Shown here piece by piece: positions 17,132 through 29,145 of a stretch of DNA of 31,819 nucleotides. Position 1 is the stretch's first letter, and each line of letters begins with the position of its first letter. The stretch is from a virus. Its lineage: Duplodnaviria > Caudoviricetes. The notes under the pieces were generated by a model. That model was not told the DNA's origin. It did no database searches and was given only the letters and a program-made list of their open reading frames with translations. Location: positions 1-31,819 of the IMG/VR virus record IMGVR_UViG_3300012166_000007. One strand, given 5' to 3'. A program made the translations under genes and the position numbers.

Positions 17132-17205
17132 TGCGCGGATGGACAGGAATCGAACCTGTGCATGGGCCTTCACGGCCCATGTTCTGCCACTAAACTACCA
17201 CCCTC
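17132..17205 (-). tRNA. Atypical tRNA (His-like G-1:C73, non-canonical anticodon loop CGTGAAG)
   Basis: G-AGGGTGG TA GTTT-AGTGGCA-GAAC A TGGGC-CGTGAAG-GCCCA TGC ACAGG-TTCGATT-CCTGT CCATCCG C GCA. Confidence 0.7.
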
Positions 17206-20120: not shown

Positions 20121-20160
20121 AAAGAGACAGGGGCACATCCCAAGGATGTGCCCCATCTTT
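20121..20160. terminator. Bidirectional terminator between convergent genes
   Basis: GGGGCACATCC-CAA-GGATGTGCCCC with T-rich tails on both strands. Confidence 0.75.
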
Positions 20161-20574: not shown

Positions 20575-20951
20575 CAGGCTTCGACCATGCGGTCGAAGTC
20601 ACCGTCATTCAGAGTCTGGATGTCTTCCTTGCCGGTATCCAGGTCTGTCATCAAGGCGATCGCCTTGACCTTGGCGTACATAGGCTCGTCGACCTCATAG
20701 AGGTCCAGAATCTCCCACGTGGCGTTGCGGCCCGCGAACTTGTACTTCTTCCCGAGCCGGAAGAACGTGGCAGGCTTCTCCCACATGGACTCGACGATGG
20801 ACCACACTACTTCGAACCTTTTGCCATTCTTGTCCAGCAGCCACGCCATGTTGTCATGCAGGCCAATAACCTCGCACACGCCACGTGTTGTCTGGTAGAT
20901 GCCGCCCTTTTCGGCAACAACCTTGTCACCAATGCTGATCAGCATGCTCAT
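20574..20951 (-). CDS. Hypothetical protein (two small beta domains)
   Basis: AAGGA RBS; ATGA overlap. Confidence 0.75.
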   Translation of the reverse strand: MSMLISIGDKVVAEKGGIYQTTRGVCEVIGLHDNMAWLLDKNGKRFEVVWSIVESMWEKPATFFRLGKKYKFAGRNATWEILDLYEVDEPMYAKVKAIALMTDLDTGKEDIQTLNDGDFDRMVEA

Positions 20952-21502
20952 TCCTTTTCCCTTTGGTAGTAGCGTTCCAGGTTGGAGTTGCTCTCCGCCT
21001 GAAGGTAACCGGTCCTGCGAGAGCGCATGAGCGCTCCCTTGTCTCCCGTTGCAAGGATGTCGAACGTGTCGGTCCTCTGAATCAGGGAGACCACGTCCCC
21101 GACCTTGCGGTCAGGGTTCTGTCCAGGACTGCCAGGCCGAGGCTTGGACTTGTCCTTGCGTACATCCGGCGACTCTATGATGATGCGCCAGAGACCGGAG
21201 TCGTAAGCCGCGAGAGTGCCGTAACTGGAACTGGCATCGATGAACCATGCCACCTGCCGTCCGCCTTCGACCTCCGGTCCGATCCATCCAACATAGTAGA
21301 TCTTGGATGCCATCGCGGGAGTCTTGAAGGCAAGCCCGACCCTCAAAGGGACGGGTGCAGGGTTCACATCAACGGTCCACATGTCGTAGATGCCATCAAC
21401 GATCGCAGTTGCTACGTCCTTGAGCGACCGCTCCTCGTTGGCAGAGTCGTCGATCAGTGCAGCCACCGCATCAATCTGTGCTGCCCGACTTGGCACAGCC
21501 AT
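20948..21502 (-). CDS. Hypothetical protein
   Basis: GAAAGGAGG RBS before ATG 21502 (MAVPSR...). Confidence 0.8.
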   Translation of the reverse strand: MAVPSRAAQIDAVAALIDDSANEERSLKDVATAIVDGIYDMWTVDVNPAPVPLRVGLAFKTPAMASKIYYVGWIGPEVEGGRQVAWFIDASSSYGTLAAYDSGLWRIIIESPDVRKDKSKPRPGSPGQNPDRKVGDVVSLIQRTDTFDILATGDKGALMRSRRTGYLQAESNSNLERYYQREKE

Positions 21503-21612
21503 GAATCCTCCTTTCATGGACCCAGAGGTCTGCGAGTATCGAGGGGAGAGAGGCACCCGATACTCGCAGACTTCAAGGTCCACGACTCTTGGTCGTGGAA
21601 CCTTGTTACATA

Positions 21613-22086
21613 CTACTCCACTCGGTCGCCAGTCTTGGTGTCGACCCAGTAGAGGCCGCCGAGAGTGTAGTCCTTGACGGCGCGCTGGCCGTTGAGGGCG
21701 CGCTCGTGAGCGTCTGCCCACGTTGCACCCTTGTCCTGGCTGCCCTGGAGGATGTCCAGGTACCGAGCGGCGTCCGAATCGAACGTCAGATCCTGGTCGA
21801 TCTGGAGCGCGCCCAGGAGATCACTGACGCCCTGCTCGTTGAGGCTACCCTGAAGGAACTTGTCCTGCGGGATACCTCCGAGGATCAGGGCGGTACCGAC
21901 GAGGCAGCCAGGGCGGTGGTTGCTCGCCTCGTACTCCTCAAGCTCCTCGTTCCAGGTGCTCGTGTCGTAGTCCACGTACAGGCACACGCCGGGGCCTTCG
22001 GGGGCCTCGTACTTGTAGCCCTCAGGCTTGGACGCGATAGCCTGTTCAACCAGCTCGACAGCCTTGTCAAGCTTCAAGTCAAGCAT
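21613..22086 (-). CDS. Early protein, paralog of 23718-24143
   Basis: GGAGGGAG RBS; KPEGY..CLYVD..PGCLVG..QDKGATW. Confidence 0.8.
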   Translation of the reverse strand: MLDLKLDKAVELVEQAIASKPEGYKYEAPEGPGVCLYVDYDTSTWNEELEEYEASNHRPGCLVGTALILGGIPQDKFLQGSLNEQGVSDLLGALQIDQDLTFDSDAARYLDILQGSQDKGATWADAHERALNGQRAVKDYTLGGLYWVDTKTGDRVE

Positions 22087-22092
22087 GATACT

Positions 22093-22312
22093 CCCTCCAC
22101 TTCCGTGAACCTCACGGAGAGGGATGCACAGAGTGAACAACTGGCGTCCGGGTGACAAGCCCTTAGTACCTTATATCGAACGGCATAGCCGTTCGTGCCC
22201 TTCGGATCGAAGATCCGCATGGCCCAGGTCACTGCCAGGAGCCTACTTATGTTTCGGCTACTCTGTGCATCCTTCACCGAGGACATCCCCGAAGGGATGT
22301 CACACGGATGCA
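22093..22312 (-). ncRNA. Structured cis-regulatory RNA (riboswitch-like)
   Basis: 15-nt closing stem, internal hairpins and an anti-SD; see findings. Confidence 0.55.
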
Positions 22313-22316
22313 GCCG

Positions 22317-22748
22317 TTACGGCTGAGACGTCGGAAGATCCTCCGAGGAACCCCGGAAATCGACGTCAGGCAAGATGGACTGGGGCTTAAACGTCTTCCG
22401 GTAGTGGTAGGCCGATGCCTTGATGGGCTCGCCCTGCTCCACGAAGTACGACACATTGTCGGACAGTCCGAAGAAGTCCTTCACGTACTCGTTCTTGCCG
22501 GTCTTGCAGATCACTTCAAGCTGGCTGTCCTCTGGGTCGACGTCGATCGAGCAGGCGCCAACGATCTCCAGAAGGTACTTGTCCGTGATGCCGTTGAACA
22601 TCACGATGCGACGATTGACCTCGAAGTTGTCGGCAGCCTCGGATACGTTCTCCGACGCCACATCGGCGTCACTCGAACAGGCAGACACGCCGAGCCCCAG
22701 CGTAGCCATCGCGACGGCAGATGCGATGAGCTTGGTGGTGCGCTTCAT
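22317..22748 (-). CDS. Phage lipoprotein
   Basis: Signal peptide with VSAC lipobox; SDADVAS.N.S..ADNFEV.RRIV.FNGIT family motif common in phages. Confidence 0.85.
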   Translation of the reverse strand: MKRTTKLIASAVAMATLGLGVSACSSDADVASENVSEAADNFEVNRRIVMFNGITDKYLLEIVGACSIDVDPEDSQLEVICKTGKNEYVKDFFGLSDNVSYFVEQGEPIKASAYHYRKTFKPQSILPDVDFRGSSEDLPTSQP

Positions 22749-22824
22749 GCTTTACTCTCCCCTTTTCGCTGTGATCCACAGTGGATCAAGCAACGCTCAG
22801 CCTGAAGGCTGAGCATCACTTCAC

Positions 22825-23373
22825 TCACTGGGAGAACAGGTACGTTGTGCCACCCCACGAGCATTGATCGTAATCGCCGATGAGTGCTTCACCATACGCC
22901 TCGAAGTCAAAGTAAGACTCCAGGTCTTCGGAGATGTAGTTGCCGCCTTCCTCCATACGCTCTGCTGCGTACTTGGCGTAGTCCCCATCGAACTCTTCGT
23001 AATAAAGACTTTCCACGGTGCGGAAACCGGTATCGAAGTCGAAATACCTCCAGTCCACGTGCTCGATGTAAGCCAGGACGGCGCCCCCAGCGGCGGGCAG
23101 CTCCCTGGACTGGAGGTAGGAGTACAGCTTGGCCACCTCGTGAATCCACAGCGTGTCGTTCTCGTTCGCACCGATGACAAGCTCTTCGCCGTCATCGTCA
23201 TCGAAGCTGAGGCCGGTCACGCTGCCGAAAGCGATTCCTCGCTCGTCAGCAAACTTGGCCACCTCCACGACGATCAGTTCGAACAGTTCATCGGCGTCGT
23301 CCGCGTGGACCCACAGGTCATCAAGATCGATGCCCTCACTGTCGCCAGGGGTGCGCTGAATCCAGAGTTCCAT
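22825..23373 (-). CDS. ardA: ArdA-like antirestriction protein
   Basis: Highly acidic; C-terminal YAAE..EE......LESYFDFEAYG..L motif. Confidence 0.7.
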   Translation of the reverse strand: MELWIQRTPGDSEGIDLDDLWVHADDADELFELIVVEVAKFADERGIAFGSVTGLSFDDDDGEELVIGANENDTLWIHEVAKLYSYLQSRELPAAGGAVLAYIEHVDWRYFDFDTGFRTVESLYYEEFDGDYAKYAAERMEEGGNYISEDLESYFDFEAYGEALIGDYDQCSWGGTTYLFSQ

Positions 23374-23377
23374 GTCC

Positions 23378-23644
23378 CTACTCCGAGTCTTCGGACGTCT
23401 CGCCATCCAGCCGGATGGCAGAGTCGTAACTCTGCTCAGGGGACAGCACGCCCAGGAATGCCAGAACGTCGCTGTGCGCCTCCCTGACGGCCTCTCGGGC
23501 GTCTGTGAGTGAGTAGATACGCACACGCCCGTTCTGGATCGTCAGAGACGGCTCTACGCCCTTCAGGAGGCCTCTGGCGCGAGCGTCAGTGGTCCCGAGA
23601 AGCTTGGCGACGTCCTGCACGGTGACCGCGTCAGGAATGATCAT
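23378..23644 (-). CDS. HTH DNA-binding protein (MerR/Xis-like)
   Basis: VTVQDVAKLLGTT...R......NGRVRIYS. Confidence 0.7.
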   Translation of the reverse strand: MIIPDAVTVQDVAKLLGTTDARARGLLKGVEPSLTIQNGRVRIYSLTDAREAVREAHSDVLAFLGVLSPEQSYDSAIRLDGETSEDSE

Positions 23645-23717
23645 TTCTCTCTCCCTTGTTTACTGCGTTCCCCAAGTCGGGGTGAATGCCGCCACCCGGA
23701 GGTGGCGACAAACATCT

Positions 23718-24143
23718 CTACTTGGAGTCGCTCGCGAACACGTCGCCCCAACTCAGGGCGATACGTCGGCTGGCCACGTACCCGACTACGGAGTCGGTGA
23801 TTTTCGCGACGACCCCCCAGGGCACGCCTTGGTCCTGGAGCGTCTGGGCTACACCCATGATGGCCTTCGCCCGGTCCGAGAACTCGAACCTGTCACTGAA
23901 GAACTCCACCAGGGACGCAGCGGTGTCCAGCCTGGGCACATCTTCGATGTCCACGCCGAGCTTCTCGATGAACAGTGAACCGATGATGCAAGACGGCACA
24001 AGGGTGCCGTCCTCAAGAACATCCACGTTCACGCACCCTCCGGGCTGGTCCGGCTCGCATGCGTAGCCGTCAGGCTTGGCGTCAGCCAGCTCAGCCAGCC
24101 AGTCAACGATTTCGTTGCCGTCGACCTTGCGCTTGTCAGTCAT
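23718..24143 (-). CDS. Early protein, paralog of 21613-22086
   Basis: KPDGY..CVNVD..PSCIIG..QDQGVPW; CAAGGGGAGAGA RBS. Confidence 0.8.
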   Translation of the reverse strand: MTDKRKVDGNEIVDWLAELADAKPDGYACEPDQPGGCVNVDVLEDGTLVPSCIIGSLFIEKLGVDIEDVPRLDTAASLVEFFSDRFEFSDRAKAIMGVAQTLQDQGVPWGVVAKITDSVVGYVASRRIALSWGDVFASDSK

Positions 24144-24190
24144 GTCTCTCCCCTTGGGATGCGGTGTGACGCAGAACACACGATACGGAC

Positions 24191-24219
24191 TTGACAACGT
24201 CCGACACGCAGGCTACAAT
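24191..24219 (+). promoter_or_regulatory. Consensus sigma70/HrdB promoter firing antisense to the early operon
   Basis: TTGACA-17 bp-TACAAT. Confidence 0.8.
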
Positions 24220-24225
24220 CGTCTT

Positions 24226-24370
24226 ATAGGTAGTTAAACAAGGTTCAGCGACTGCGACCCCCAGGGAGCAGGTTAGCTGCTGAATGTCGCCACATCTGAA
24301 GTCAGTTTAAGTTCCTGGACATGCTAAACAATGTCAAACAGCCGCCACCCTAAGGGGTGGCTGTTTTGTT
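24226..24370 (+). ncRNA. Candidate ~145-nt small RNA
   Basis: Bounded by the promoter and a terminator (AAACAGCCGCC/GGTGGCTGTTT plus TGTT); no credible ORF. Confidence 0.55.
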
Positions 24371-24597
24371 GTCTAGACATCGGCAACTCAATCGCCGTGC
24401 GGCTAAGGGACCAGTTACGCTTTCGGCCTAGGGGCCTACAGCTTCACTGACCGGAGAAGGAATCCCCAGCATCCTTCACTGGTTCTTCTGCCTCCGGTCC
24501 TCGTTTCCCCTGGTTTAACTATGTTTAACAGTGATCCACTGGATCAGGAAGCACAGCTGCCTCAAGGCAGCTGCACAACCTCACTCAGTAGAGCGTT

Positions 24598-25086
24598 TTA
24601 CAGCTCAGAGAACTTCTTCACTCCGTTACCCACGTAACCTTCAGTGGTGTGGACCTTCAGGGGACCGAAGCTCCCTGCATAATCCGCCAGAGTGGAGTAG
24701 CCGAACTCTTGGGCAGCGCCCATGTCGCTGCGAGGCGTAAGCCTCTCGATGTGACCGTCCTCGATGTAGACGAAGAGCATCGTCTTGTCGGTGGACTTGT
24801 CCTTACCGACGAGAATGTCGCCCTTCTGGAAGGCTTCACCCTCCGTCCACATGCTCTTGTAGGACTCTTTGATCGACTCGCTCGACAGGAGACCGAAGTC
24901 TCCCCTGTACGCATTCCACGTACCGTCGTCGTCGGTCTCTCCGCCCTGGGCGACGAAGCGGTAGCCGTCGATCTCGGAGATGTAGATCTCCTTGAGCAGC
25001 TTGTAGCCGTACGCCCGTCGGAGTGTTCCCTGATAGACGACAGTGTCGCCCGTCTTGAACACGCCATTGTGGGGCTTGACAGCCAT
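24598..25086 (-). CDS. Hypothetical early protein
   Basis: ACAAGGGAGAGAG RBS before ATG 25086. Confidence 0.8.
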   Translation of the reverse strand: MAVKPHNGVFKTGDTVVYQGTLRRAYGYKLLKEIYISEIDGYRFVAQGGETDDDGTWNAYRGDFGLLSSESIKESYKSMWTEGEAFQKGDILVGKDKSTDKTMLFVYIEDGHIERLTPRSDMGAAQEFGYSTLADYAGSFGPLKVHTTEGYVGNGVKKFSEL

Positions 25087-25170
25087 AACTCTCTCCCTTG
25101 TTCCGGTTTTCCCTGATGTGAACAGGGTGAATGTGGACATCCAGAAGATGTCCACAAACGTCACGTCACA

Positions 25171-25848
25171 TCACTTCACGAGAGTACTGGAGAACGGCGC
25201 CCCGTCGGGGAGCGTCATCTCCTTCATTCCAGTCCGGTCCACCAGGACCAGACGAATGACACTTGCGCCGTCCTCAAGGGGGCGCAAGGATGTGTCAGTC
25301 ACGGCGTAGAACTTCTCACTATTGGCGTTGATGAGGAACATCCCCGCCTTGACGGAGAGTTCCCCCACCTTGACGCTGTACGAGCCACTGGCCCCGAAGT
25401 TCTCGCGGGTGAGTACGGCGGGCTGGCTGTGACCGTACGCAGTGAACTGACCGCTGCTCACAGTTCCAGCCAGGACTACGTAGAAGCTCACGGGTGAGCC
25501 GTCCACGTCGGCGACGTGCGTCTGAAGTACCTTGACGCCGTCGCCGTACTTGTTCCTGTAGACGTCGCCCTTTTCGACCAGGGTGTTGTCCGGTCCGAGA
25601 GCTTCCTTCCATGCCTCAGTCAGACTGGACATACCGCCCATGGTGTTGAAGCCCAGGCGGTAGGCGTCGTCCTCTTCCAGCGCAAGCTCGCTCAGGCCGT
25701 CCTCGTAGTCGCCGAACACCTGGCCCAGCACGCATACAGAGCACGAGCCGAGGTTCAGACTGTCGAGGTCGACAAGGTCACGCCAGCCAGGCTGCTCAGT
25801 ATCGAGCAGCCTGATGCCAGCCTGAACCTTACTGCTGAAGTCTGTCAT
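25171..25848 (-). CDS. Hypothetical early protein (CSVCVLGQ N-domain plus beta domains)
   Basis: ACAAGGGGAGAGA RBS. Confidence 0.8.
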   Translation of the reverse strand: MTDFSSKVQAGIRLLDTEQPGWRDLVDLDSLNLGSCSVCVLGQVFGDYEDGLSELALEEDDAYRLGFNTMGGMSSLTEAWKEALGPDNTLVEKGDVYRNKYGDGVKVLQTHVADVDGSPVSFYVVLAGTVSSGQFTAYGHSQPAVLTRENFGASGSYSVKVGELSVKAGMFLINANSEKFYAVTDTSLRPLEDGASVIRLVLVDRTGMKEMTLPDGAPFSSTLVK

Positions 25849-25932
25849 CTTCTCTCCCCTTGTGGGTTTGTGTCATGCGATCCATGGCACATCAATGCCC
25901 ACATCAGAGATGTGAGCAAAGAAGATTGTGGA

Positions 25933-26019
25933 TCAGCCCTTCAGATATTTGACCGCGAAGTACACGAACGCCACCGCACCCGCAAGGGGCGGCAGGAGTA
26001 TCACTGTCTCCGCAATCAT
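25933..26019 (-). CDS. 28-aa membrane peptide (MIAETVILLPPLAGAVAFVYFAVKYLKG)
   Basis: GGAG RBS; ATGA overlap. Confidence 0.55.
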   Translation of the reverse strand: MIAETVILLPPLAGAVAFVYFAVKYLKG

Positions 26020-26390
26020 GACTTCTCCAGCATCGCGTCAACGGCAGCCTTCTGGGTGGTGAAATCCTTGACGGCTTCACCGGAGGTGGAACAGAACGAG
26101 TAGCGGACCACTTTACCATCCGATACGGCGTACTTGTTCACCAGCCCGACCAGCTTGCGACTGCCCTTGACCCGCACCTCGTACGTCTTTGGGGTCAGCC
26201 TGACAACGGCCACAGAAGCCCTTGAGAGCCCCTTGGGAGACGCTTCGGCAAGCTTCCTTGCCTTGGACCTGTTCCGTCCGTTACGGGACGTCTCAGGCAC
26301 CCTGTTGCCAGCACCGAACCCCACGAACCGGGAGCCCTTGAGGGGCTCACCGGCACTCATGAAGGTTTCATCGAATGCAAGGTGACTCAT
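26016..26390 (-). CDS. Basic hypothetical early protein
   Basis: ACAAGGGAGAGAG RBS. Confidence 0.75.
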   Translation of the reverse strand: MSHLAFDETFMSAGEPLKGSRFVGFGAGNRVPETSRNGRNRSKARKLAEASPKGLSRASVAVVRLTPKTYEVRVKGSRKLVGLVNKYAVSDGKVVRYSFCSTSGEAVKDFTTQKAAVDAMLEKS

Positions 26391-26470
26391 AGTCTCTCTC
26401 CCTTGTGCAGTCCGGCAGTGATGCCGTCAATGCCCACATCCAGAGGATGCGGACAAAGAGTGGTCACTGA

Positions 26471-26803
26471 CTACATGTTCTTTTCGATCCAGTCGGCGAT
26501 CTCGTCGAACGAGTTCTGCTTGCCGTCGTTCATGTTCATCAGCACGTCGGAGTCCACCGGTTCGACACCGAACGCTTCTGCCACCTTGCCAGGCAGGTAG
26601 CAGAAGTAGCCATCGAAGTGATAGTCCTCCGTGGCCTCCGGAATCTCCACCGCCGGAGAGAGGATGCCCGCCTCCACGGCAACCTCGGCCAGCACCCCAA
26701 GGCAGCAGTACGTGTTGCTGGAACTGCGCAGCCTGCCACGGCCCTGGGCATACTCGCCAGAACGCAGCTTCTCAAGCCACTGGGACTTCGCTGTGTTGTC
26801 CAT
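26471..26803 (-). CDS. Early protein, LRSG.Y.Q/CCLGV family
   Basis: ACAAGGGAGAGAG RBS; tandem paralog of the next gene. Confidence 0.8.
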   Translation of the reverse strand: MDNTAKSQWLEKLRSGEYAQGRGRLRSSSNTYCCLGVLAEVAVEAGILSPAVEIPEATEDYHFDGYFCYLPGKVAEAFGVEPVDSDVLMNMNDGKQNSFDEIADWIEKNM

Positions 26804-26880
26804 GTTCTCTCTCCCTTGTGTCGGCAGTGATGCCGCTGCAACGCTCACCCCGAAAGGTGAGCGCTCCATCTGGTCACTGT

Positions 26881-27264
26881 CTAGAATGCGTACTCGATCA
26901 CGTCCGCTATCTGTTCGAAGGTCAGCCCGTTGTCGTTGAGTTCCGTCAGGGAGACGGAGAAGTGGCGGTTCACAGTTGGGGACAGGTTGATGTATCCGGA
27001 CAGACTCTCCAGGCCGGACCACTGGCAGGCCATGTACGACAGCGTCGCAGCCTCGGGCTCGGTCTTGCCGTCCAGGCCCACGGTACGGTCGTCATCCAGC
27101 CACTGACGCAGCGGGGACAGGTCTTCCAGCACCCCGAGGCAGCAGTAGGACTTGGATCCGTCTTCCGCAGTCTTGCGGAGCCGTCCCTGCACCTGCTCGT
27201 AGTCGCCGCTCCGAAGAGCGGTGAGCCACTCGGCCTTAACCTTCGGGTCCATGCGCTTACTCAT
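26881..27264 (-). CDS. Early protein, LRSG.Y.Q/CCLGV family (first gene of the early operon)
   Basis: ACAAGGGAGAGA RBS. Confidence 0.8.
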   Translation of the reverse strand: MSKRMDPKVKAEWLTALRSGDYEQVQGRLRKTAEDGSKSYCCLGVLEDLSPLRQWLDDDRTVGLDGKTEPEAATLSYMACQWSGLESLSGYINLSPTVNRHFSVSLTELNDNGLTFEQIADVIEYAF

Positions 27265-27269
27265 GATTC

Positions 27270-27630
27270 TCTCCCTTGTGTTAAGGGGCTCACAGCCCGT
27301 GTAAGCCTCCCGGACAGCCGCCGCTACCAAAGGTACCAGCGACTCCCCGAAGGGGCCACGTACAGCCCTTGCGGACCACATGCAGCCCCTTCAACAAGGG
27401 GACCCATCAGCCCCCGAAGGGGTTGTGGGCCCTTATCAGCCCCCGAAGGGGCGTGATAAGAGGAAAGAGTAGGTGTACGAACTCACACTCGGCCACGTGC
27501 TCCGGGGGTCTCGCCCCGTCAGGGGCGGGCCAACCACACCAGTCATCGCAGCGGTGCACACGTTCCGAACGAACGCACCTTATCGAGTACCGAGCGCTTG
27601 ACGCAGGCTACTGCCTGCGGCTCGTACACA
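27270..27630 (-). ncRNA. Highly structured early leader RNA
   Basis: Multibranch domain plus back-to-back hairpins with cUUCGg and GCAA loops on the minus strand. Confidence 0.55.
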
Positions 27631-27634
27631 GCTT

Positions 27635-27657
27635 CATTATTCAGTTCTCAAGGAACG
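27635..27657 (-). promoter_or_regulatory. rrn-leader boxA-like element, copy 2
   Basis: CGTTCCTTGAGAACTGAATAATG. Confidence 0.6.
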
Positions 27658-27760: not shown

Positions 27761-27789
27761 ACACTTTCATCCCCTGCGAATTCTGTCAA
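27761..27789 (-). promoter_or_regulatory. Early promoter candidate
   Basis: TTGACA-17 bp-AAGTGT (weak -10). Confidence 0.45.
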
Positions 27790-27932: not shown

Positions 27933-27954
27933 CAATGTGAAGTTCTCAAGGACC
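27933..27954 (-). promoter_or_regulatory. rrn-leader boxA-like element, copy 1
   Basis: GGTCCTTGAGAACTTCACATTG. Confidence 0.55.
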
Positions 27955-28831: not shown

Positions 28832-29145
28832 TTGAAAGTTCGGTCCCGACACGCCGACGGGGACGGGTATAAGTAGTATGACTACGTACCCACACTATAA
28901 TCATGGCGAGCAGATGTACAGACTCAGTGTCGTGAGCCAGCCCTCTAGGGGCTGGGCACACTGCTTACCATGGTTTACATAGTCCCTCCCAAGGTCGGGA
29001 TCTTCACTCCGGTAGAGGGTCCGCCCCAAGGCGGAACCCGACTATGAAGGAGCCGCACGGCGATTGAGTTGCATATGTTTAACAGGTCCGTCAAGTTTAA
29101 CTAGCACCGCTAGTTTCAACATGATTATAGGGGTAGGAGTACGGC

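Follow-up and report, generated by a model that had tools for sequence, protein, structure and literature searches.

A ribosome-binding tag shared by early genes and a complementary hairpin loop behind them: a candidate RNA off-switch in Streptomyces podoviruses

We analysed the early region of a tailed phage, IMG/VR record IMGVR_UViG_3300012166_000007 (31,819 nucleotides (nt), below called the window), a record that is about 70% complete and groups with the Streptomyces cluster BF podoviruses (Beephvirinae). The early genes of these phages lie between long hairpins and share an extended ribosome-binding site (RBS), here called the tag, and a further hairpin behind the final early gene exposes a loop complementary to that tag. 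We suggest that the intergenic hairpins are processing sites in the early transcript and that the terminal loop represses the tagged genes, a combined reading to which we assign a probability of roughly 50%. Taken on their own, cleavage of the early transcript by ribonuclease III (RNase III) at these hairpins is probable by analogy with known sites, and repression through loop-tag pairing, predicted from complementarity, has the odds slightly on its side. That hairpins between early phage genes serve processing is an old idea; what is new here is the tag with its anti-tag loop. An earlier note on this DNA had seen the last hairpin as one of nine, and had missed both the shared tag and the loop that matches it.

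The tag reads AAGGG(G)AGAG(AG) and in phage Stella precedes 8 of 12 annotated early genes compared to 1 of 55 others. The terminal hairpin sits after the final early gene and before the ordinary Shine-Dalgarno (SD) sequence of the first untagged gene downstream (Table 1). Its apical loop, UGNCUCUCUCCC or a close variant, is near-invariant and is carried on an uninterrupted helix of 10-16 base pairs (bp) in 20 of 21 sequences. Under this constant loop the stem covaries, with 15 distinct 5' arms in the 21 sequences; in a MAFFT alignment of 20 sequences 96.7% of cells are paired and 13 of 23 pairs have changed on both sides, far above slid controls. The hairpin was present in all 11 genomes first examined, and eight of nine motif matches in IMG/VR were the terminal site. 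Only 0.6-1.1% of bases lie in loops of this type.

Across 15 core genomes the loop gives at least nine contiguous Watson-Crick pairs with 112 of 128 tags, seven of the nine being guaranteed by the tag search pattern itself. The tags fall into registers with three Gs and AGAGAG (62), four Gs and AGAG followed by something else (56) and three Gs with another continuation (10); four Gs with AGAGAG never occur, and the two main registers are the two ways to make nine pairs with the loop. For the window, the loop core is predicted to be unpaired (P above 0.9) and its predicted binding to eight tags (-15 to -18.5 kcal/mol) is stronger than to four untagged starts (-8.6 to -13.6 kcal/mol), energies that leave out the cost of opening the loop top. 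Compared by sequence, loop length tracks tag length in three divergent lineages. In L026 and L053 the loop is one CU shorter and long tags number 0 of 21, and in L210 it is one CU longer and 6 of 6 tags are of the longest kind; L218 has the core form. A distant relative by tail protein, ct2KA10, has no tags. Two other functions for this site were considered. The CU loop as RBS of a plus-strand gene was rejected, as no start codon follows it. In several relatives the loop of the small hairpin upstream could mask the downstream SD, and we do not claim such masking because it is absent from the window and from L036.

The same design, with a tag of its own, is found in an unrelated group of actinophages. 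Start Associated Sequences (SAS) are over-conserved extended RBSs described before non-structural genes with wide gaps in cluster K mycobacteriophages and cluster EF Microbacterium phages (PMC3203893; PMC7302621). The account of SAS in PMC3203893 leaves open whether RNA or protein binds them and records that every K1 genome has one reverse copy, for which it gives no explanation. For Adephagia we find that this copy forms the loop (10 nt) of a long hairpin, which lies on the tagged strand just behind the last SAS gene (L184:30660-30715, right end). LilPharaoh and Niklas keep the anti-SAS loop hairpin with changed stems, and Thyatira carries it on a perfect stem at the opposite genome end from its tags (L191:895-935, left end), where it lies between the gene preceding terminase and a tRNA gene. 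In all, four of the eight cluster K genomes examined have an anti-tag loop hairpin on the tagged strand that matches their own tag sequence, and 9 of 10 IMG/VR matches to the anti-SAS motif fold as the same kind of hairpin. Judged by complementarity, these loops would explain the published reverse copy. The anti-SAS stretch of Adephagia has matches that cover 80% of it in 124 phage records.

Besides the two limits on the pairing figures given above, several points weigh against repression by the loop. One related genome (L204/G006, 97% complete) lacks such a loop although its tags are long and it has the hairpins, and we did not find the loop in fragment L055; a reverse tag copy in G006 was dismissed as an anti-tag loop, being inside coding sequence. 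The anti-SAS loop is absent from TM4, Pixie and SirPhilip and altered in Ekdilam, all of cluster K, and Microbacterium phage AnnaSerena lacks an anti-copy loop. The tag/anti-tag design is therefore recurrent but not universal. In the window the tag is missing from the ArdA-like anti-restriction gene and from the last upstream gene (22086). Each transcript holds one loop against about nine tags, so the loop RNA must outlive the mRNAs. Finally, counts and p-values overstate independence because orthologous tags and hairpins share ancestry.

The alternative that survives best holds that the hairpins process or stabilise the transcript while the CU loop is kept for protein binding or as a structural constraint and does not pair with the tags, which are simply strong purine-rich RBSs. 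The tag does include a usable SD (its pairing to the 16S tail is worth about -8 to -12 kcal/mol), and both the long tags kept without a loop in L204/G006 and the several SAS phages without an anti-copy agree with such an explanation. It leaves unexplained why loop length follows tag length in L026, L053 and L210, and why in cluster K a different tag is matched by a different loop, at two genomic positions. We consider it unlikely, if still to be reckoned with.

All nine stretches singled out in the earlier note do form long imperfect hairpins; on the minus strand their z-scores run from -2.9 to -7.4 (200 dinucleotide shuffles each), for what are pre-selected stretches. However, two of them have to be set apart: the fold at 22266-22312 is not conserved, and 21518-21581, the terminal hairpin, is of a different kind. 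In a 56-nt energy scan of the whole window many coding windows were as stable and the hairpins were not singled out. Because of this, and because the stretches were pre-selected, conservation and not energy is the real evidence for them. We collected elements from 17 genomes or loci, where 150 tagged starts gave 127 cores of at least 7 bp and, of these, 102 with a loop 30-52 nt from the tag.

These elements bear out the view that selection acts on the minus-strand RNA. On the mRNA strand 47 loops are UNCG compared to 1 CGNA, G.U pairs occur in 67 of the 102 upper stems, and in the window the minus fold is the more stable one for eight of the nine hairpins, the exception being 21518-21581, which is slightly more stable on the plus strand (-42.7 versus -40.1). 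Also as first described, the hairpins run from stop codon to RBS and lack U-tails: eight of nine begin within 7 nt of a stop codon (counting an unannotated open reading frame (ORF) before 25934), seven of nine end within 20 nt of an RBS, and five Us in any 8 nt are seen in 1 of 102 elements. At orthologous sites the stem sequences vary freely, the 15, 11 and 13 sequences compared having 13, 7 and 12 different arms. What stays constant is the helix length, a basal stem of 5-7 bp and a group of mismatches that lies about 14-20 pairs away from the loop. The uninterrupted upper stem measures 8-11 bp in 98 of 127 cores, and with mismatches the helices span 24-27 registers, or about two helical turns, between the genes of the polycistronic early transcript. 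We conclude that these are genuine hairpins, which act on the minus (mRNA) strand and have been maintained through compensatory change. A search of Rfam returned only a tRNA at gathering score, with chance matches only at E up to 5.

The proposed code within these stems did not hold up. Five hairpins of the window (those at 26416, 25879, 25114, 24537 and 23671) do combine an upper stem of 10-11 bp with a tandem U.U/U.U mismatch, but of 39 sequences from three orthologous sites 16 have the tandem, 11 a single U.U and 12 neither. Since the mismatch is not conserved at orthologous sites, the code fails by the test that the earlier note had itself set for it. Turnover of gene cassettes, which the note had raised, is seen when gene content is compared across relatives: genes between hairpins come and go and class A hairpins number 0-4 per genome. 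We regard it as an evolutionary by-product, with recombination at the shared hairpin flanks as a plausible cause. Tandem paralogues of phrog_18067 lie at 26471-27264 (minus strand), two in the window and three in L026 (2676-4070), with a class A hairpin after each; on sequence comparison these repeats of paralogue plus hairpin are a cassette amplification.

Within the long hairpins, a second, small hairpin overlaps the lower arm on the 3' side, the two folds being mutually exclusive; it is present at z < -1.5 in 91 of 102 elements compared to 9 of 102 for the mirror fragment from the 5' side. Its median energy is -7.95 kcal/mol, versus -3.5 kcal/mol after swapping arms and spacers, and in 92 of 97 cases its start is 14-17 nt from the loop, 14 being a lower bound by construction. 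In the modelled folds the second hairpin becomes possible after loss of the 5' arm, and would then cap the downstream mRNA.

Upstream of the first early gene, the leader contains two copies of a motif resembling boxA, the antitermination signal of rrn operons. A 15-mer of the window spanning copy 2 occurs very commonly in Streptomycetaceae; in all 10 Streptomyces loci checked it is found upstream of 16S rRNA, and most relatives checked have one or two copies of the motif in their leaders. By analogy, we infer that these motifs serve antitermination, and it is possible that the phage leader has captured the ribosomal system. The leader of L026 shows a far longer match to the host rrn leader; it also contains another CU-rich tract, flanked by complementary sequence and lying upstream of every tagged gene (L026:1155-1175).

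We favour processing over termination because of the boxA-like leader motifs, the overlapping second hairpin and the lack of an intergenic promoter repeat. Only 9-19 nt separate hairpin and tag, whereas phiC31 intergenic regions, by sequence comparison, carry a repeated element before genes, and scans of the window turned up no promoter-like repeat between a hairpin and the next gene. The T7-like processing role put forward earlier thus has the architecture in its favour (leader motifs, second hairpins, and a helix length like that of the T7 R sites and the host pnp hairpin), with RNA cleavage itself a prediction. RNase III as the enzyme, the place of the cut and stabilisation of the products are what we infer by analogy. 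Two points count against processing. Permissive proximal-box pairs for RNase III are A-U/U-A at positions 2 and 4 (PMC3074117), and by this rule the cut site is not fixed, since one register fits two hairpin classes and does not fit class A. Further, the case for processing and repression is built from sequence and architecture, the public RNA contigs being too thin to tell: eight public runs match a stretch of phage JXY1, and in the RNA runs among them the contigs have a depth of 2-11, too sparse to read ends or strand. One contig end at the foot of the terminal hairpin was dismissed as an RNA end, as it comes from a single adapter-bearing fragment and is bridged in another run.

Alternatively, the hairpins could be intrinsic U-less terminators of the sort reported from phiC31 early genes, giving a stepwise gradient of expression or single-gene units. 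They begin at stop codons, and terminators without U-tails are reported in Streptomyces and mycobacteria (PMC8355165). Nevertheless, we find no phiC31-like repeated element in the short gap between hairpin and tag, the boxA-like motifs suggest read-through, and the second hairpin within the 3' arm is left without explanation; in addition, a soil metatranscriptome contig runs across the terminal hairpin of a JXY1-like phage, in a library where DNA is possible. Termination therefore seems to us quite improbable.

A ribosome-driven switch without cleavage, in which a ribosome at the stop codon of the foot melts the basal stem and the second hairpin forms, is less probable again, as is the related idea that the hairpins are uncut binding sites for RNase III or a phage protein that binds double-stranded RNA. 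Stop codons do lie in or beside the 5' foot of most elements, and the long and second hairpins are mutually exclusive. But in the elements of the window the tag lies outside both folds, so switching alone would not expose it, and 24537-24590 and 21518-21581 lack the stop-to-RBS layout. That the terminal loop instead pairs in cis with the upstream tag of an uncut transcript, or targets host mRNAs with similar G-rich RBSs, is the least probable explanation: complementarity alone cannot separate cis from trans and some relatives can fold the upstream small hairpin's loop onto the downstream SD, but the nine pairs are kept by all tags and not by the nearest alone, the nearest upstream gene in the window is untagged, and the Thyatira hairpin is at the opposite genome end from the tags.

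Under the combined reading of processing and repression, host RNA polymerase would start in the leader and read through the early block with help of the two boxA-like motifs. RNase III would cut each helix of about two turns near the mismatches, 13-16 pairs from the loop, and the freed 3' arm would refold as a 5'-terminal hairpin that shields the downstream mRNA, with the tag just behind it. The terminal hairpin, excised or at the end of an RNA, would be stable and build up with each round of transcription; its loop could then pair over 8-9 nt with the tags, lowering early translation while the untagged downstream genes continue. More broadly, and just short of an even chance on the sequences compared, actinophages may tag their early genes and encode at the transcript end a hairpin with a complementary loop, freed by RNase III much like a precursor microRNA, as an accumulating timer that shuts off the early set; the same logic would explain the cluster K SAS and their single reverse copy.

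A second element of this kind precedes the final one. For the stretch 22266-22312 we rejected the fold first proposed, as ten relatives support the small upstream hairpin and the long stem listed in Table 1. The long stem closes a multibranched domain with a conserved AUAAGUA loop (22244-22255), which is invariant in 10 of 10 aligned relatives. The element has a z-score of -4.35, and the consensus fold of the ten relatives shows compensatory change in 16 of 36 pairs. ATAAGTA as a phage promoter was rejected: it occurs once per early region and is not found upstream of late genes in the full Stella genome, for which reasons we take it as an RNA loop. A reverse TTGACA in the element was also rejected as promoter, with no -10 at usable spacing. 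A model built on the terminal element also finds the penultimate one in L210, so both look like one scaffold with different cargo, and by its predicted fold the penultimate element may release a second small RNA.

Table 1. Coordinates of the leader, hairpin and loop features in the window, from the leader to the first untagged gene
Feature	Position	Strand	Remarks
rrn-leader (boxA-like) motif CTTGAGAACT, copy 1	27941..27950	-	early leader
TTGACA, -35-like hexamer	27784..27789	-	candidate host promoter of the early operon, from sequence only; not called in promoter scan
rrn-leader (boxA-like) motif, copy 2	27643..27652	-	same motif, CTTGAGAACT
First early gene (phrog_18067)	26881..27264	-	tag at 27269-27276
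Class A long hairpin	26822..26879	-	overlapping second hairpin 26822-26835; tag 26807-26816
Class A long hairpin, 11 bp + U.U/U.U	26413..26469	-	second hairpin 26413-26426; tag 26394-26403
Long hairpin, 10 bp + U.U/U.U	25871..25934	-	second hairpin 25871-25891; tag 25852-25860
Long hairpin, 11 bp + U.U/U.U	25111..25173	-	second hairpin 25111-25127; tag 25089-25098
Long hairpin, 11 bp + U.U/U.U	24532..24590	-	second hairpin 24532-24546 possible; next tag far off, 24146-24154
Long hairpin, 10 bp + U.U/U.U	23670..23726	-	second hairpin 23670-23682; tag 23647-23656
ArdA-like anti-restriction gene, inside the array	22825..23373	-	phrog_2059, E 1e-11; Pfam ArdA weak
Long hairpin, 15 bp, without U.U	22772..22830	-	second hairpin 22772-22788; tag 22755-22763
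Penultimate element	22102..22303	-	small hairpins 22282-22303 (upstream) and 22102-22118 (downstream); long stem 22260-22279/22115-22134
Small hairpin overlapping 5' foot of terminal hairpin	21579..21599	-	conserved with covariation in relatives
Terminal hairpin	21518..21581	-	upper helix 21528-21571; conserved CU loop
Anti-tag loop UGCCUCUCUCCC	21544..21555	-	complementary to early RBS tags
Ordinary SD GAAAGGAGG	21507..21515	-	of first untagged downstream gene (20948-21502)

The phage context of these features is as follows. A structural protein of the window has 66-73% identity to proteins in 29 phage records, and the early region matches phages Stella, Manuel and JPandJE. The minus-strand block of 21.6-27.3 kb consists of small genes mostly of unknown function, together with the ArdA-like gene and a gene of the VG64/RDF family, and adjoins the genome end, as it does in cultured relatives. 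Searching IMG/VR with the ArdA protein of the window found no loci. A short unannotated hydrophobic ORF (25933-26016, minus strand) overlaps the stop of gene 26016-26390 and ends at the foot of the next hairpin, and relatives have similar short ORFs at the equivalent position. Opposing the early operon, a near-consensus sigma-70 promoter (TTGACA-17-TACAAT) with a U-tailed terminator about 145 nt on (24191-24372, plus strand) makes, by sequence, a candidate for an antisense small RNA; L036 keeps this promoter, and Manuel and JPandJE have it in weaker form. A 31-nt element is present in two copies, 90% identical, at 24374-24404 (minus strand) within the early operon and at 29051-29081 (plus strand) upstream of the terminase gene, and L036 carries both. 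Outside the block, a single tRNA-Ser(TGA) gene (17133-17205, minus strand) lies amid replication genes, away from the usual BF tRNA cluster, and a bidirectional terminator-like hairpin (20130-20154) separates the converging sigma-factor block and minus-strand genes.

In the literature searched, mostly open-access main texts, neither the hairpins nor the tag nor an anti-SAS RNA turned up. The paper on phage Abafar (PMC11536984) nowhere mentions a hairpin, terminator, repeat or promoter. The tag and its anti-tag loop lead us to propose a protein-free, multi-target off-switch for the early genes of a virulent phage. What binds the SAS motifs of mycobacteriophages, a question open since 2011, becomes directly testable and could be resolved by such a pairing. 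Should this hold, tag/loop pairs would also offer a compact, orthogonal means of controlling translation in a coordinated way in actinobacteria, and with the hairpins some hundred natural substrates would be available to define the specificity of Streptomyces RNase III.

The early region resembles several known systems, each in part. The early RNase III sites of T7 (R0.3-R1.3) are likewise hairpins between the genes of a host-transcribed early operon, one of whose genes is an anti-restriction gene. Folded from NC_001604, the T7 early hairpins have an upper stem of 9-12 bp and then an internal loop, and they share with ours the step to mismatches after this stem and a U-rich step on the 3' arm. 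No sequence is shared, however, and the hairpins described here, putative cleavage sites, have GC-rich stems of 24-27 registers, a second hairpin in the 3' arm, a boxA-like leader and two terminal cargo-loop elements. The early region of phiC31 reportedly has terminators without poly-U tails between early genes. Those are U-less hairpins just after stop codons between early genes of a Streptomyces phage, as here, but phiC31 lacks a tag array, and in its intergenic regions a repeated element precedes genes.

In the host, RNase III of S. coelicolor cuts the rpsO-pnp hairpin at an internal loop, and the cut destabilises the pnp mRNA (PMC10126417). The orthologous hairpin of two Streptomyces genomes is also long, its helix being interrupted by single mismatches and, about 10 pairs down from the apex, by a U.U, and the same host enzyme is proposed for the phage, but the phage architecture points to stabilised rather than destabilised products. 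Like SAS, the tag is a conserved extended RBS a few nt before the starts of non-structural genes with wide intergenic gaps. It differs from the 13-bp consensus of cluster K, and whereas the 17-bp extended SAS (ESAS) are conserved inverted repeats, the stems described here vary freely.

In function there is a likeness to the actinobacterial small RNA 6C/B11, whose C-rich hairpin loops pair with the G-rich RBSs of many mRNAs and repress them (PMC10470900). Both present an unpaired C-rich loop complementary to multiple RBSs; 6C/B11 is host-encoded, has two loops and its own Rfam family, while the phage has a single CU loop, without a match in Rfam, within its own early transcript and directed at its own tags. 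In origin the terminal hairpin recalls s-SodF of S. coelicolor, a stable small RNA that is generated by processing from an mRNA's 3' region and pairs up to the RBS of another mRNA (PMC3919588). There, one target is matched over 19 nt, whereas the phage loop would serve about nine targets with a seed of about 8-10 nt. By analogy with these two RNAs, the terminal hairpin may act like 6C/B11 and arise like s-SodF.

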